Below, piece after piece: positions 35,233 through 58,272 of a DNA stretch of 64,000 bases. Under the pieces are notes generated by a model. That model ran no database searches and was not told the origin of the DNA. It saw only the letters and a program-made list of their open reading frames with translations. Every line of letters begins with the position of its first letter. The first letter of the stretch is position 1. A program made the position numbers and the translations under genes. Source of the stretch: a virus (Duplodnaviria > Caudoviricetes); IMG/VR virus record IMGVR_UViG_3300017766_003039, positions 2,985 to 66,984 of that record. One strand, written 5' to 3'.

Positions 35233-37065
35233 CTAGCTCGGCACCGTGTCGCCGCTCAGCAGCGAATTCAGCATCGACCCGCCGCCAACCGGCGTCTGGC
35301 TCAGCACCTTCGCGGCATCGACCGCCGGCTTGGCCAGGCTCGAGGCCTGCTGCTGCTGCATCGCAAGATTCTCGGCATCCGCCCGGACCTTGTCTGCGTT
35401 CTGCACTTCCGTTTCCGAATACATCGAGTCGGCCGGGAAGTTGTTGAGATCGAGATAGTGGCGCGTGGCCTTGTCCCAATTCACGACGCGGCCAGGATCG
35501 GGGCGACCGGCGTTCTTGGCCGCCAGCGAAAGCTGCCCGACGGTCTGGAAGCCGTCCTTCATCGCCACCGACTCGGCACTCTTCTGCGCCATCCGCATCA
35601 ACGACATATAGTTGATCTTCAGCGGGATCTTCGCCAGCGACGGCGGCATGGGCTTCAGCATCCCGCGGCGCCCCATGATGGCGATCACGCGCTGGAGCAC
35701 CGGGCCGGCCACGTCGTTTTCGAACAGGTCGATCACCGGGCCCAGAACCTGTAGCCGCTCGAGATCACGCTTCGTGAGCTCCAATTCGTTGCGCGGCTGG
35801 ACACCCTGCATCTGGGTGATGGCCATGAACTGCGGGACGTAGAACACATCCTTCAGCCGGGCCTCGACTTCTTTAATATCGGCAGACAAATACTGAAGCC
35901 ACTGCGGCACAATCTCAAAGGCGGGCTCGAAAGCCTTCTTGCCGTTCGACGTGTTCACGAACGTCACCATGCCGGGCATCACCGACGCGGGCTCGTTCTT
36001 GAGCGCGGGATCCGCCACCATCGGCGGGCGCACGCCCTTCTCGATGAACTCGGCCTTGCGATAGGACTCCTGCTGAAGCTGCTTCTGGTCGCCCAGGCCA
36101 TCCATGCCGGGGCCGCGGCCGTAGGGATCGTTGCTCACCACCGACCACCGACCGGCCATGAACGGCTTCTCCATAAAGCCGCGAACGCTCAGGGGCTTCT
36201 CGGACTTGCGGCCCCGCAGCCAGTAGACCTCGCGGTAGGTATAGCGGCCGGATACGACGTCGATCCGTTTGCCGTTCTTTCCCTTGGGGCCGATCGCGAA
36301 GTTGGGCTCGATCGCATGGGCGACGATGAATTCCTGGTCAAGCTGGCCACCGCCCTGCTCCCACAGGCCCTTCACCTGGGCCGGGCAATTCTCCAGCCCG
36401 AACATCTCGACGATCTGGATCACCGTCAGCGTGAACTCGCGATAGAGCGTGTCGACCGAGAACCGCGCGCCGGCACCCAAGAAATACTCGCCCACGCAGG
36501 GCAAGTAGAACCGGACCACGTCCTCCTTGTCCTCGTAGCAGATCAGCGGCGACGTCCCGAAGATCGTCACGTCCTGGAAGAACTGGGCCATTACGCCGTA
36601 GAAATTCGACTGGTGCAGCACCGCCTGGACGCGCGTACCGGTGTCCTGAAGCCACTCCTTCGCCGCCTGGTCGAGCTTCACGTTGCTCAGCGCCGGTTCG
36701 AACTTGAACCACGGCCGCGCCGGATTGGTGAGACCGCTCCACATGCCCGACGCGCACGTCAGGGCCGCCATGCAGCCGACCGAGTCTATGATCGCGTCGT
36801 TGAGGTAATTGCCGCGATTGTAGTTGTTGGCGATGATCCAGGCCTTAGCACGCCGGGGCAGGAAGAACGTCCCCAATTGCTGCCACGTCGCCCACCAGGT
36901 CCAGCGCCACGTCCGCAGGCCGTTCATCCGGCGCTCGAGATGGCTGAAGGTCTGGTCCCACCACTTGGGCTGCTGTTCAAAGCCGCTCGGCAGCGTCAGC
37001 GGCTGGGCCGACAGAAAGTCTGGCCCCATCTCGGTATAGGCGGCCGTGCCGGCATCAAGCGGCAT
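35233..37065 (-). CDS. Portal (head-tail connector) protein, Bbp21-like
   Basis: W..L..F.LPRR...IIDS.G...A.G.WSGLTNPARPWF...SNFY...FGT...RW.....YGRGPG...RP...RLQVLGPV. Confidence 0.93.
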   Translation of the reverse strand: MPLDAGTAAYTEMGPDFLSAQPLTLPSGFEQQPKWWDQTFSHLERRMNGLRTWRWTWWATWQQLGTFFLPRRAKAWIIANNYNRGNYLNDAIIDSVGCMAALTCASGMWSGLTNPARPWFKFEPALSNVKLDQAAKEWLQDTGTRVQAVLHQSNFYGVMAQFFQDVTIFGTSPLICYEDKEDVVRFYLPCVGEYFLGAGARFSVDTLYREFTLTVIQIVEMFGLENCPAQVKGLWEQGGGQLDQEFIVAHAIEPNFAIGPKGKNGKRIDVVSGRYTYREVYWLRGRKSEKPLSVRGFMEKPFMAGRWSVVSNDPYGRGPGMDGLGDQKQLQQESYRKAEFIEKGVRPPMVADPALKNEPASVMPGMVTFVNTSNGKKAFEPAFEIVPQWLQYLSADIKEVEARLKDVFYVPQFMAITQMQGVQPRNELELTKRDLERLQVLGPVIDLFENDVAGPVLQRVIAIMGRRGMLKPMPPSLAKIPLKINYMSLMRMAQKSAESVAMKDGFQTVGQLSLAAKNAGRPDPGRVVNWDKATRHYLDLNNFPADSMYSETEVQNADKVRADAENLAMQQQQASSLAKPAVDAAKVLSQTPVGGGSMLNSLLSGDTVPS

Positions 37066-38226: not shown

Positions 38227-39744
38227 CTACCGGTTGAACGGATCGTAAGGGGTGACGGCGCCCTGCGGGGACTGCCCGGAGATCCGGTCAATATCGGCAA
38301 ATGGATTGTAGTGGCCGCCCATGGCCGACCGCGCCACGGTCGCGCGGGCCGTTCTCGATTTTGGGGTGACCGGCTCGGCAAAGGTCAGAGCGCAGGCATC
38401 GGCCTCGTCGGGGGAGAAGCCGAGCTTCCGCTTGATGTCGTCCTTGTCCTCGAGCATGAGGCGGTCGTTCTTGAACGTATAGACCGTCTCGGTGAGGGCC
38501 TTCAGCAATTCCCGGCTGCCCTCCTGATCCTCGGGCGGCAGCGCCCCGCCGGCCTTGATCCAGTCGACGAACAGGAAATACATCTCGGCGCGACGGTTGG
38601 CGTAGCGCATCTCGACCGAGGCCTTGGAATTGAACTGCACCGGGATCGACGCCTTGCCCAGCACGTTCAATTGGTCGATCCATGTGAAACCCAGGCCGCC
38701 GGTCGCGTCTACAAAGCAGGCGTCGGCATCGAACTCATTCCAGTGCCGGTTGGCGATCGAGGCGCCCGTCACGCCGTCCGGCACGTTCCGGTAGCGGCGG
38801 AGGTTGTGCATTTGGGGACCGTGGCGCATGGCGATCACGCTGGCATCATCGCCCTGGCGCGCGACGTCGATGCCCATGATCTTCGGCTGGTTGCCGATTT
38901 CCAGCGGCCGATACCACCGGCGCATGGCGGCGCGCACTTCGTCCGGGCCGATCAGGGCCGTCAGCGACGTCGGGGGGAAGCGCCCGAACACGTTCACGAG
39001 AACGAATGGATGCTCAGCGCCGTACTTTTCGATCTGCTGCCGGGCCCAGTCGATATGGACGCGGCTCGCGCGCTCGGGATCGTCCGGGTCGCCGGTGATC
39101 TCCTTGCGCCACCACAGATCCTTCTCGGAGGTCGCGGCGCGATAGAGCGGACCGGAAAGGTTGGTCGGATTGCCGGCCTGGACGATATGGCCTTCAACGC
39201 ACGACGCAAGCGCCGCTTCAGCCGCGGCCATCACCGAGTCGGGAATGCTGCCGCTTTCATCCAAGAGGAACAGCATGTAATCGCTATGGAGGCCGGCGAG
39301 TGTGTTGGCCTGCTCCTCGGCATTGCCCGTCTTCGGCCAGGTGCGGGCGGACATCCACCAGTTACCCGCCAGATCGGTCTGCTTCGCGGCAATGCGCGTC
39401 GTCGTCCACACGAAGTTGTCGCGCAGGAATGGGGACTTGGCCTGCCACTTCGCCATCTCTTTCCAGAGACCGTCGCGAAGCTGATCGCCGCTGATCGACG
39501 TCGCTGCAATGTTGGGGCTCGGCCGAGTCGCGAGGAAATTCCATCCCAGCCACGCCAGCACGGTCGTCTTGCCTGGACCTTTGCAGGCTTGGAGTGCAAT
39601 GCGCTGATTGTGGGGGAAGGCCTCAAGAACCGAGTCTTGCCAGGCATCCGGCGTGACGCCGAATTGCTCGCGGACGAAGATACGAGGGTCCTTGCGATAG
39701 AGCGCGATGCGCTCCTGCTCCGCCGACATCTTGGGCTTGGCCAT
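38227..39744 (-). CDS. terL: Terminase large subunit
   Basis: Walker A LQACKGPGKT, Walker B LFLLDES, coupling motif GNP, nuclease IMGIDVARQGDD and SPDEADA. Confidence 0.95.
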   Translation of the reverse strand: MAKPKMSAEQERIALYRKDPRIFVREQFGVTPDAWQDSVLEAFPHNQRIALQACKGPGKTTVLAWLGWNFLATRPSPNIAATSISGDQLRDGLWKEMAKWQAKSPFLRDNFVWTTTRIAAKQTDLAGNWWMSARTWPKTGNAEEQANTLAGLHSDYMLFLLDESGSIPDSVMAAAEAALASCVEGHIVQAGNPTNLSGPLYRAATSEKDLWWRKEITGDPDDPERASRVHIDWARQQIEKYGAEHPFVLVNVFGRFPPTSLTALIGPDEVRAAMRRWYRPLEIGNQPKIMGIDVARQGDDASVIAMRHGPQMHNLRRYRNVPDGVTGASIANRHWNEFDADACFVDATGGLGFTWIDQLNVLGKASIPVQFNSKASVEMRYANRRAEMYFLFVDWIKAGGALPPEDQEGSRELLKALTETVYTFKNDRLMLEDKDDIKRKLGFSPDEADACALTFAEPVTPKSRTARATVARSAMGGHYNPFADIDRISGQSPQGAVTPYDPFNR

Positions 39745-44266: not shown

Positions 44267-44574
44267 GCGTGACCTGCCGGCTGGAGTTCGTCTTCAAGAA
44301 GCTCCCGGACGTTGGCCATAACGACACCCGCGTCACAATTGCTGTGCATGAGCAGGGTGCAGATCGCGTCCCCGATACTGTCGTTGCGCTGCTCCAAGTC
44401 CTCGATCCGGACGGCGACCGCAGCCGCCAGGGCCGCAATGCCCTCGATCACGCAGGCCGAAGGCACTTCCCGGTCCGGCGCCCCTTGGACGATCTCCAGA
44501 AGCGTGTTCGACATATCCTGGTAGACCCGGTCCGCGAAGCATTCCTCGCCGGCGATATCGTGGTGGTCGTTCAT
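44263..44574 (-). CDS. Hypothetical acidic protein
   Basis: RBS GGGGAG; ATGA-coupled. Confidence 0.65.
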   Translation of the reverse strand: MNDHHDIAGEECFADRVYQDMSNTLLEIVQGAPDREVPSACVIEGIAALAAAVAVRIEDLEQRNDSIGDAICTLLMHSNCDAGVVMANVRELLEDELQPAGHA

Positions 44575-45095
44575 CTGGCTCCCCCATTCGCCGCAGCGAA
44601 TTCGATCTCAACCGGATCAACATGGCGCCACGTCTCGCCACGAGCGATATTGCCGATCACATCCAGGGTTACCCCAAATCGCCTTGCGATGGCCGTTCGC
44701 CGGATGGGGCGGCGCAAGAGTCCCTTGATTTCGGCAACCTGCCACTCAGCCAATTGCGCCCGAGTTACCTGACTGCCTCGCAAGGCGCGATGGCGCCCCC
44801 GACGCATCATGTCGTCTGTGTTCTGAGCATGCGTCCCGAGCAACAGATGCTTCGGATTTTGGCAGAGACCTTGATCGCAAGAATGGCGAACGATCATGCC
44901 GGCGGGAATAGAACGGCCGGTAGCCAATTCATAACCAGCCCGATGGGCATAGACCGGACGCCCATCCACAGTGAAGCGGCCATGGAATACTTTGGCGCCT
45001 CCGGATGGCTGCGCGCACCCCGCCCACATCCAGCATTCATCAGGCCGACCGCGGACGATCTTCGCCCAATAGCGAGCAATCGTCTCTGGCGTCAT
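44571..45095 (-). CDS. HNH endonuclease (HNH_3 type) with C-terminal HTH
   Basis: DECWMWAG...YAHR..YEL..G...IVRHSCD...CQNPKHL..GTHAQN..DM. Confidence 0.92.
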   Translation of the reverse strand: MTPETIARYWAKIVRGRPDECWMWAGCAQPSGGAKVFHGRFTVDGRPVYAHRAGYELATGRSIPAGMIVRHSCDQGLCQNPKHLLLGTHAQNTDDMMRRGRHRALRGSQVTRAQLAEWQVAEIKGLLRRPIRRTAIARRFGVTLDVIGNIARGETWRHVDPVEIEFAAANGGAR

Positions 45096-45454
45096 TTCCC
45101 GGTCCTCGCCTTGGTCAGCGTCGCCCGGATCACTTCCGCCCGCGACCGCAGCCCCAGTGCCTTCCGCCGCTCCTCGAGCCACGCCAGCGTGTCGAAGTCG
45201 ACCTGCGTAAGGAAGGGCGGCGCCAACTTCGACCCGTCCGGCGTCTCCGGCCCCGCAGCCGCAACCTCTGCCGGCGGCTTCTTCGGCGGACCCTTTCCCG
45301 CCGGTGCCGGCTCAGGTGTAGGTAACGGCGAAGCCGTTCGCGTTTTCCCGGTAGCCCCAACCTTGGGCCGATCCTGGACGATGACGTCACCCTCTTGCGA
45401 GGCCTTCGCCTTCTTCAGCTTCTTCGAATATGCGATCTGATGTGTCAGTGCCAT
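45092..45454 (-). CDS. Protein with C-terminal ribbon-helix-helix (CopG-like) DNA-binding domain
   Basis: FLTQVDFDTLAWLEERRKALGLRSRAEVIRATL. Confidence 0.7.
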   Translation of the reverse strand: MALTHQIAYSKKLKKAKASQEGDVIVQDRPKVGATGKTRTASPLPTPEPAPAGKGPPKKPPAEVAAAGPETPDGSKLAPPFLTQVDFDTLAWLEERRKALGLRSRAEVIRATLTKARTGK

Positions 45455-45460
45455 ATATCG

Positions 45461-45490
45461 AACATATGCCTAGCTGAGACATATGGTCAA
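45461..45490 (-). promoter_or_regulatory. sigma70-like promoter TTGACC-18-TATGTT, 6 nt before the ATG (leaderless), overlapped by CATATG palindromes
   Basis: -35 at 45485-45490, -10 at 45461-45466; CATATG at 45463 and 45480. Confidence 0.6.
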
Positions 45491-45666
45491 TATGGGAGGC
45501 CGAAACACATCGGTATTATTTTGCAGAAATTTTTACACAAGGACTGGGAGACCTCGCTGTAGTGGCCCGGTGAGGGGGCCGACGGCTCCCCCCAAGTCGA
45601 TATACAGGCCGCGTTCTTTCCACTATCCGCGCCCTGGCCGACGGCGCCGCATGGTCACTAAAGGTG

Positions 45667-45694
45667 ATTTCCCATAATATACATTATGACGTGC
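45667..45694 (-). other. dif-like XerC/XerD recombination site
   Basis: GCACGTCATAA TGTATA TTATGGGAAAT vs E. coli dif GGTGCGCATAA TGTATA TTATGTTAAAT: 21/28 identical, central 16 bp identical. Confidence 0.75.
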
Positions 45695-45785
45695 ATCCTG
45701 ATTATGCTTGGCATATCAGCGGCTTAGCCTTGTTGCACTCTGTAACAATCGCTTTCCCAGCGACCGGACACAATAGCTAGTAGGT

Positions 45786-46328
45786 TTAGGCGTCGTCCTC
45801 CGGTGTCGTAGCCTTGCCTTCTATCACCTTGGCATCGTCGCCCATGCTGCCTGCCACCAGCGACGCTAGGTCGATCCGGCCGGAGTGCTCGACGGTCTTT
45901 GTGTCCTTCCAGTGCTGACTGACTCTGTTACCCAGGATGAACTGCGCCGCTGTCACGTTTGGCGCGTAACGCCTTGTAATATCAGTCTTTATGACCCGCC
46001 CATCGACTACGTTTAGCTTGGTCTCCCGGTGCTTGAAGCCACGCGCGGCCGAGTGCAAGGCGCGAACGACGGCCACAGGTGCATCCACGCGGGCTTTTTG
46101 GACGGCCAGCGCCAGGGAAGGGTGTTCAACCATCCACTTGGCAAAGACGTTTCGTTCAACGCCTAGAAGCTCTGCAATCTCTTCATTTGTGTGACCTAGC
46201 AGGGCATATCCGTTGGCTCGGCGGTCGAATGCCTTGAAGTAACGGCTTTGGACGGTTCCGAGTGCGACGCGGGCCGCGTCTCTCAACTCTTCCTCGACTA
46301 TCTGTCTGGCTTTGGATTTGCCGCCCAT
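45786..46328 (-). CDS. terS: Terminase small subunit (HTH type)
   Basis: LGHTNEEIAELLGV...F.KW...HPSL..A...R......V..AL...A.G....E......PNVTAAQFIL.NR....WKD. Confidence 0.85.
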   Translation of the reverse strand: MGGKSKARQIVEEELRDAARVALGTVQSRYFKAFDRRANGYALLGHTNEEIAELLGVERNVFAKWMVEHPSLALAVQKARVDAPVAVVRALHSAARGFKHRETKLNVVDGRVIKTDITRRYAPNVTAAQFILGNRVSQHWKDTKTVEHSGRIDLASLVAGSMGDDAKVIEGKATTPEDDA

Positions 46329-56891: not shown

Positions 56892-57736
56892 GCCTCAGCC
56901 TGCGATTCGTCGCCTTCCGGCACCATGTCCCAGCCCGGATCCTCGGGAACGTCTGTGATCGGCCCAGGCGGTCCATTGTGCCCGGAATTATCGCGCCGCT
57001 GGGCCGGTTTTTCTGCCCGTGGCGGCATCCCGATATGAGCGGCGTCCGGCGCCGGCACCAGGACAGGCGGCCTATTCTCCAGCGCAGCCAGTTGCTCCTC
57101 AATAGCGTTTGCCCGGTCATACTGCCCAAGGCGCCTGTACGAGGCTATAGACGATGCCAGCCGGGTCTCCCGAGTTTCCTGCCCAGGCTGGGCCCGCTCC
57201 ACGATCCCGTGCTTTGCCCGCCATGCTGCGATCATTTCAGCCGGCGCCAAGTGCGGCCCGGGATCCTCCGGCCTGTTGCCCTCGGTCTCCTTGTGCCACC
57301 AGCCGCCGCGGCGATACCTATCCAGACGCCCGCGCCAGTCCTGCGAGCGCACCGGCGCCGGCGAACTCGAGCCCGCCACAGCCACAGGCTCCCCGCCATT
57401 GTAAAAGTCCTCGATCACCTTCCGCACCGTCGCCGGCCGAGTGAACCAGTCTAGGTTCGCCTTGAATTGCTTGTGCCCATCGCGGGGCGAGACGCGACCC
57501 ATGCAGAAGTCGCTGCGCTCGATCTTTTCAAGCATCGCCTGAAACCCCGGCACCCCGCCGTAGTCCTTCACCGCCCGCTTGAGCGCCGAGCGCCGGCCAG
57601 TGTCGAGAACCTTGGCCTCTTGCCACCCGTTCTTTTTGGCAAAGCGATTCCACAGGTCGTAACAGGACTGAACCGGGGCCGACGGCGCGTCCGCAAGCTC
57701 GCCATCGCTGAACAACGCAGGCTGAACAGCTTTCAT
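56888..57736 (-). CDS. Phage replication-initiator C-terminal-domain protein lacking the N-terminal HTH
   Basis: YDLWN...RRSALK...F..ML..IERSDF..G...FKANLDWF.RP....KV.E..Y. Confidence 0.7.
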   Translation of the reverse strand: MKAVQPALFSDGELADAPSAPVQSCYDLWNRFAKKNGWQEAKVLDTGRRSALKRAVKDYGGVPGFQAMLEKIERSDFCMGRVSPRDGHKQFKANLDWFTRPATVRKVIEDFYNGGEPVAVAGSSSPAPVRSQDWRGRLDRYRRGGWWHKETEGNRPEDPGPHLAPAEMIAAWRAKHGIVERAQPGQETRETRLASSIASYRRLGQYDRANAIEEQLAALENRPPVLVPAPDAAHIGMPPRAEKPAQRRDNSGHNGPPGPITDVPEDPGWDMVPEGDESQAEA

Positions 57737-58272
57737 TGAATATGCCGCCTGAATTTGCGTTTCTTAATGCCGGAGATTAACGCTGCCGTGACCCCATACT
57801 CGTCGGCAATATCCCACAGCTTGCGCTGATCGCTGCGGATACCCGGGATCGCCTCATCGGGAATTACTGTATTGGCGTGGCCATTCCCAAAAGGAGACCG
57901 ATGACGCCCCTTCGCCATTTTATCATCGACGTTGTCCTGATGCGTGCCGAGGCGAAAATGCAGGTCGTTCACGCAGCAAGTGACATCGCATTTATGAAGC
58001 ACTTGTTTGTTGGCCGGGATGGGGCCGTGCTTCTTAATCCAGATGAACCGATTGGCCCTCTTCAGCCGGCCTTTTTCAAATATTCTCGGATAGCCCTGCG
58101 CATCGACAGATCCCAGCCACAGCAGACACCCGCTGTTCGGCTCGGGCATCGTCCAATACTCGACCTTCTCTTGCCAAGTCGTATTGCGGCCAGTGTAACC
58201 CTTGATGATCCCAGGACCGAATGACCGACTTAACGATAGCGCCGGCTGCACGGCGGTCTTTGCCTTGGCCAT
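57733..58272 (-). CDS. HNH endonuclease
   Basis: EPNSGCLLWLG...ANR..WI.KHGPIP...VLHKCDVTCCVN..H..LGTHQDN..D. Confidence 0.92.
   Translation of the reverse strand: MAKAKTAVQPALSLSRSFGPGIIKGYTGRNTTWQEKVEYWTMPEPNSGCLLWLGSVDAQGYPRIFEKGRLKRANRFIWIKKHGPIPANKQVLHKCDVTCCVNDLHFRLGTHQDNVDDKMAKGRHRSPFGNGHANTVIPDEAIPGIRSDQRKLWDIADEYGVTAALISGIKKRKFRRHIQ

Follow-up and report, generated by a model that had tools for sequence, protein, structure and literature searches.

What is a dif-like XerCD site doing next to the packaging genes of a tailed phage that encodes no integrase? The question is raised by a 28-bp element in the genome of a podophage recovered from a freshwater metagenome. The stretch analysed, referred to here as the window, comprises 64,000 nucleotides, bases 2985-66984 of a 66,984-bp IMG/VR virus record (CheckV completeness 100%; G+C ~63%). 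A preliminary description of the window had placed the element between the terminase genes, and had proposed that the phage uses host XerCD either to integrate at the chromosomal dif or to monomerise a circular prophage or a replication concatemer.

The element occupies positions 45667-45694. On the plus strand it reads ATTTCCCATAATATACATTATGACGTGC, and on the minus strand GCACGTCATAA-TGTATA-TTATGGGAAAT, which divides into an XerC-side arm (GCACGTCATAA, 45684-45694), a 6-bp spacer or central region (TGTATA, 45678-45683), and an XerD-side arm (TTATGGGAAAT, 45667-45677). A recount agrees with the preliminary description: the minus-strand 28-mer and E. coli dif share 21 of 28 positions and agree at every one of the central 16. 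This 16-mer occurs only once in the entire 66,984-bp record, and 0.04 matches would be expected by chance in the window when up to three mismatches are allowed. The same 28 bp also score best genome-wide against an independent alphaproteobacterial dif template. The alphaproteobacterial character ascribed earlier to the XerD-side arm holds as well, as TTATGGAA.. is the form that this arm takes in published dif sites of Alphaproteobacteria (PMC2731167). In the XerC-side arm the inner CATAA is canonical and the outer six nucleotides are diverged; XerC arms are generally the less conserved half of dif (PMC2731167). The element lies in a 331-bp non-coding gap (45455-45785), 92 nt after the stop codon of terS, the gene for the small terminase subunit (45786-46328, minus strand; phrog_309, E=3.6e-28). 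The gene for the large subunit, terL (38227-39744, minus strand; phrog_2 and phrog_5902), is found ~6 kb downstream in the same direction, so that the site does stand between the two, and a T7-type portal gene is present at 35233-37065 on the minus strand (PF12236).

Chromosomal dif sites of possible hosts provide the most direct comparison. With a first phylum-wide dif pattern, nearly all matches had E. coli-type TTAAAT arms and none were of the GG type. A second pattern, TCGCATAA-N6-TTATGNNANNT, was searched in 121 genomes of the order to which a MAG titled Rhodospirillales belongs, and was present in 59 of them, nearly always once, while the reversed pattern used as a control gave no match. 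Two of these genomes (G496 and G482) carry ATGTCGCATAA-TGTATA-TTATGGGAAAT and TTATCGCATAA-TGTATA-TTATGGGAAAT in regions of 59-62% G+C. The phage site agrees with these chromosomal sites at 22-23 of 28 positions, including 22 contiguous bases that run from the inner part of the XerC arm through the spacer to the end of the XerD arm. The XerD arm matches at 11 of 11 positions, an agreement with a natural host type rather than with a proven host, and the XerC arm matches at all five positions of the inner CATAA and at 0-1 of the outer six. TGTATA is also the commonest among 63 chromosomal dif spacers sampled from the order. Since 22 contiguous bases are shared with two chromosomal dif sites, the 28-mer, judged by its sequence, is a genuine host-type dif and not a product of chance. 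Three other genomes of the sampled order (G421, G427, and G449) have two or three dif-type sites each, on separate contigs, which may mark additional replicons or elements that exploit Xer. Among cultured phages, a 34-nt query with host dif returned filamentous phages, microviruses, and weak matches, with no alphaproteobacterial tailed phage among them.

The element is also a property of the phage family; its absence from close relatives would, according to the preliminary description, have refuted the proposed use by XerCD. A terS protein search of viral_contigs gave no relatives, and those recovered with a terS alignment were distant, with identities of no more than 46% in viral_contigs and 37% in metagenome_contigs. 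In all, 42 clusters of terS homologues were found on contigs of up to 67,003 bp, several of them 65.9-67.0 kb long with differing start points. The gaps following terS were scored with a template taken from published Rhizobiales dif sites, NNNTCGCATAA-N6-TTATGGAANNT, with 17 scored positions (PMC2731167). At 13 loci, representing 12 distinct phages, the best match fell 86-126 nt after the terS stop codon and scored 12-14 of 17, whereas outside the gaps only 1 of 124,710 positions reached a score of 12. All 12 distinct phages with the gap carry a dif-like element, and these share with the window the 11-6-11 layout and the inner inverted ATAA/TTAT around a 6-bp spacer. When oriented, the family consensus is TGATCGCATAA-N6-TTATGGcAAAT, which includes positions that the template did not score. 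The two arms hold 0.93 and 1.15 bits of information per position, values inflated at the template positions, as against 0.40 for the spacer and ~0.4 for the flanks. Conserved arms around a free spacer, with free flanks, fit the core site of a tyrosine recombinase. The XerD arm of one relative (L004) is identical to that of the window phage, and the variants seen in others (GGGAAAT and GACAAAT) are also found as chromosomal dif arms.

The surroundings of the site allow a different suggestion to be weighed, namely that this is not a Xer site at all but an AT-rich palindrome, present by chance or as a relic, or else an operator for a phage DNA-binding protein such as the product of the neighbouring ORF. 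The core of the site is indeed a palindrome within a promoter-bearing gap, where a sigma-70-like sequence (TTGACC-18-TATGTT, 45461-45490, minus strand) precedes the next ORF, although it is a consensus match that is not enriched over shuffled sequences. That ORF, on the far side of the gap (45092-45454, minus strand), encodes 120 amino acids with a ribbon-helix-helix (RHH) match below the Pfam threshold (E=0.005), and it is not conserved in relatives that retain the site, which rules it out as a conserved partner. Together with the 22 contiguous bases of chromosomal dif and the family-wide match to an independent template, far above background, this makes a non-Xer origin highly improbable. 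An Rfam search of the gap gave no match, promoter and terminator scans of the gap remained at shuffle level, and a repeat search found short chance repeats only. Comparison of the gap across relatives did identify two other conserved features: a block, GGCTAAGCCGCTGATA, at 45714-45729 (minus strand), and a G-run/C-run hairpin, GACTTGGGGGG..CCCCCC, at 45572-45598, which lies ~70-95 nt past the site. At the position of this hairpin, which could conceivably be a genome end or packaging signal, the 66.9-kb contig of L004 terminates. An HNH endonuclease gene, recognised by sequence match, is present at 44571-45182 (minus strand), and the window has a second HNH_3 gene at 57733-58272. Relatives have HNH, GIY-YIG, or LAGLIDADG genes at varying positions around terS, which suggests homing-endonuclease traffic.

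A search of the rest of the genome for an integrase or partition genes, proposed in the preliminary description, extends the absence noted there beyond the part in view. In a profile search the whole record has no match to PF00589, PF00239, PF02195, or PF16684, and thus no tyrosine or serine recombinase, ParB, or protelomerase was found in its 66,984 bp. The record likewise lacks a family-A DNA polymerase throughout, the phage genes include no recognisable repressor or lysogeny module, and no plasmid state or partition genes were found. The phage does encode a RecT-like protein, a lambda-O/DnaD-like initiator, a methyltransferase, endonuclease VII, a PNKP-type phosphatase, a RuvC-like resolvase, and a radical-SAM protein. 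The lack of a phage recombinase and family-A polymerase, combined with the initiator and the RecT-like protein, suggests replication as a circle by host enzymes. Both ends of the record appear to fall in coding sequence, with one ORF open at the window's end, and no repeat or overlap was found between them. The record would therefore represent a circle or concatemer that has been cut, and its ends would not be mapped genome ends. A 54.7-kb Logan contig from the probable source run covers window positions 9297-64000 and beyond, ends 11 nt past the record end, and runs unbroken across the gap. No close cultured relative of the phage was found; its terL shares 52% identity with the terL of Xanthomonas phage CP2, a virulent phage that has no dif-like site around this gene.

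The absence of an integrase (PF00589 and PF00239) from a full-length genome is what would be expected if the site were an attP of the IMEX type, at which a circular phage genome is integrated into the host dif by XerCD to give a prophage without its own integrase. This was the first option of the preliminary description. The identity of the spacer and XerD arm with a plausible host dif makes full strand exchange with the chromosome chemically possible for the window phage, L004 also has a natural-looking spacer (TATGTA), and breaks in the contigs of several relatives fall at the site or close to it, which would be expected of a population with alternative junctions. The search for prophage homologs, however, found no integrated copy. 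Pattern scans of 185,579 species genomes with a portal or terS profile recovered no family prophage, and none appeared when the candidate order (121 genomes) was searched by profile or when G496 and G482, the two genomes with matching dif sites, were searched for the portal. These searches are of limited reach because the hosts may be unsampled. None of the 42 terS homologue clusters is found on a contig longer than 67,003 bp, and the phage has no recognisable repressor.

One 40-kb contig of a Rhodospirillales MAG, from the candidate-order profile search (contig 2 of G001; 40,425 bp; L164:1-100 and L053:10001-10344), was rejected as a prophage: it is a separate contig, its terS is distant, and it lacks a dif-like site. 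Its terS is 34% identical and split across the contig ends, followed by terL, and the break inside terS could be the effect of a pac site within the gene.

The spacers and orientations of the family sites weigh further against integration. Each of the 12 phages has a spacer of its own, and 10 of the 12, such as ACTCCA, GCGTGA, TTGTCG, TGTGCG, and TCAGCG, are unlike any of the 63 sampled chromosomal spacers. Spacer homology with a host-type dif is thus limited to the window phage and L004. Relative to terS the site points one way in 3 phages and the opposite way in 8, within flanks that are otherwise alignable, and such inversions are hard to produce through cycles of integration and excision. 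The eight inverted members out of 12 include L004:3641-3668, L073:3618-3645, and L153:3182-3209, compared with 45667-45694 of the window. An adjacent conserved block, GCTAAGCC.TTGATA, is itself inverted in L003, L075, L077, and L153, and all combinations are seen. Overall, integration at the chromosomal dif is unlikely as the function of the site, and the first option of the preliminary description is not supported by these data.

The two flanks of the window site also resemble different relatives. Across 45600-45760, the terS-side flank (..CATAATCAGGAT) is common to L151:1300-1400, and the far-side flank (CGCGGATAGTGGAAAGAACGCGG..) is common to L073:3590-3700. Similarity breaks down around the site between the L151-like and L073-like flanks, which indicates that the gap is a mosaic. 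Gene content beyond the gap also differs widely among relatives. Both observations would be accounted for if XerCD recombined co-infecting phages or elements at the site and so shuffled the DNA on either side of it, in the manner of pdif modules on Acinetobacter plasmids. Such a role as a junction for module exchange is very doubtful, as differing spacers would prevent exchange among most relatives, and phage mosaicism is common without any site-specific system. With one dif-like site per genome here, moreover, no excisable module exists. Four contigs of relatives end within this one gap, at +98 (L078), +173 (L150), +208 (L004), and +265 nt (L074) after the terS stop codon. They could arise from a physical end, from variation between strains, or from junctions of alternative kinds at the site.

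Sites of this kind are found in other phages as well. A first scan of IMG/VR with the pattern CATAA-N6-TTATGGGAAAT matched 67 contigs, overall about chance level by a rough estimate, but the high-G+C matches carry true XerC arms such as TTGTCGCATAA. Sites located 20-200 nt from terS or terL occur in at least six further terminase lineages: they follow the terS stop codon by 28-81 nt (L097 and L105), lie within the terS-terL gap (L096), precede terL by 150-200 nt (L086, L094, L087, and L102), or follow terL by 20 nt (L149). In a second scan, the pattern CGCATAA-N6-TTATGGAAAAT matched 51 contigs where a few were expected (a rough estimate), and the spacers were almost all non-chromosomal. The site was within 750 nt of terS or terL in 14 of the 18 loci with a terminase, that is, those at which a few terminase queries detected a gene, whereas random placement predicts 4.1 of 18 and gave at most 11 in 5,000 trials (P<2e-4); this proximity could partly reflect the scarcity of non-coding places in phage genomes, and short IMG/VR contigs are enriched for terminase genes.

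Contig ends recur near these sites too. In two near-complete genomes the site is 127 and 261 nt from a contig end, and terL is just across that end, 1.3-1.8 kb beyond the other end of the contig. In L179 the site is 44 nt from the contig end, ahead of a small ORF and terL. Ends fall 60-260 nt from dif-like sites in L004, L150, G522, G523, and G525. Searches for Zot and integrase were negative in five site-bearing IMG/VR fragments, each of them just 15-44% complete. The unusual spacer ACTCCA is common to an unrelated IMG/VR podophage fragment (L102:120-147) and the family member L151 (L151:1342-1369).

The reading that we prefer, to which we assign a probability of about 0.5 on the sequence evidence, is that the element is a host XerCD site that would recombine with itself on phage DNA, and thereby circularise terminally repeated DNA or resolve multimers. 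The family phages probably borrow XerC and XerD of the host for their own DNA rather than for prophage formation. Of the two options in the preliminary description, monomerisation fits better than integration, and we have widened it to include the circularisation of terminally repeated DNA because the sites recur beside terminase genes and contig ends in several lineages. XerD would bind the TTATGGGAAAT arm and XerC the arm ending in CATAA, and two copies of the phage site would recombine with one another. The most likely outcome would be the conversion of incoming or replicating phage DNA into monomer circles, for which two routes can be proposed. By one, the host enzyme would join two site copies in a terminal repeat or redundancy near the packaging start. 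By the other, it would resolve circular multimers, as happens at cer and psi on plasmids.

Self-recombination accords with the pattern of conservation described above. A site that needs only its own second copy should conserve its arms but leave spacer and orientation free, and orientation is irrelevant because both copies sit on one molecule. The recurring position beside packaging genes and contig ends suggests that a terminal repeat or redundancy may provide the two copies. A circular template would plausibly be needed by a phage whose initiator depends on the host and which lacks its own polymerase.

Several observations do argue against self-recombination. In the XerC arm, only 0-1 of the outer six bases agree with the candidate host arms, and a phage that packages concatemers has no obvious need for multimer resolution. 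XerCD of E. coli requires FtsK at the septum to act at plain dif, and no FtsK-guiding polarity was seen around the phage site: GGGNAGGG shows no switch of orientation there, skewed 7-mers merely follow the change of coding strand, and neither a switch of skew nor one of polar motifs occurs at the site. A conserved neighbouring activator gene was also not found among the relatives.

Binding without recombination is an alternative role for the site. If XerC and XerD, or XerD alone, bound and bent the DNA near the packaging start or a late promoter, this would explain the conserved arms and their 6-bp spacing with a free spacer, and the conserved blocks and hairpin beside the site, as well as its recurrence near terS, terL, and contig ends, are consistent with such an architectural role. 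IHF at the cosB site of lambda is an architectural analogue. Tolerance of either orientation is unusual for an architectural element, as is a variable distance to the conserved flanking blocks, and the family shows both. To our knowledge XerCD has no precedent as a packaging or transcription cofactor, and a literature search found none. We therefore regard a purely architectural site as quite unlikely.

The phage site can be compared with several known systems. It resembles the alphaproteobacterial chromosomal dif, at which XerC, XerD, and FtsK resolve dimers, in its 11-6-11 layout and in TGTATA and TTATGGGAAAT, which are identical in two genomes, and the family consensus is close to published dif sites of Rhizobiales and Rickettsiales. 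Unlike dif, it is located on a 67-kb genome beside terS and not at a replication terminus, its outer XerC arm is diverged, and its relatives have non-chromosomal spacers. Another parallel is found in cer of ColE1, psi of pSC101, and the pdif sites of Acinetobacter plasmids. These too are host XerCD sites on extrachromosomal replicons that lack a recombinase, with conserved arms and with spacers that differ from dif. Plasmid Xer sites consequently recombine only with themselves. At cer and psi, PepA and either ArgR or ArcA bind an accessory sequence of ~180 bp next to the XerC arm, whereas the conserved block that neighbours the phage sites is on the XerC side in some relatives and on the XerD side in others, and the phage has neither a plasmid state nor partition genes that could be found. 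In phage P1, Cre and loxP, which is placed near pac, circularise terminally redundant DNA and resolve dimers. The phage site, 92 nt after the terS stop codon, is similarly near the packaging genes; P1 encodes its own recombinase, whereas the host would supply the enzyme for the podophage.

IMEX elements such as CTXphi, VGJphi, TLCphi, and the gonococcal genetic island also have a dif-like site that is used by host XerCD (PMC6744903; PMC9226527), and like the podophage they are mobile and lack an integrase. The known IMEX are filamentous phages, satellites, and islands found integrated at dif, in contrast to a family of podophages for which no integrated copy was found and whose site is next to terS. 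Xer hijacking is established for filamentous phages, satellites, islands, and plasmids. For tailed phages it is undescribed in the literature searched, which also contained no description of a dif site beside terminase genes and nothing relevant on Xer and terminal redundancy. We offer only tentatively the wider idea, which is less likely to be right than wrong, that a XerC/XerD site of host type, in or beside the genome ends and next to the terminase genes, is carried by many proteobacterial tailed phages for a Cre/loxP-like circularisation of injected DNA that is outsourced to the host, with a spacer peculiar to each phage that would keep its site from recombining with the chromosome.

What the locus offers is a podophage family that lacks an integrase and has retained a dif-type site, with an XerD arm that follows natural variants of the host arm. 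The arrangement, beside terminase genes or contig ends, is seen again in dozens of unrelated viral contigs. If XerCD does act on these sites, circularisation or monomerisation would be a host-dependent step early in the life cycle of many tailed phages. The sequence of the XerD arm would then be a marker for host prediction in metagenomes, and the spacer would serve as a dial between self-recombination and chromosomal integration.
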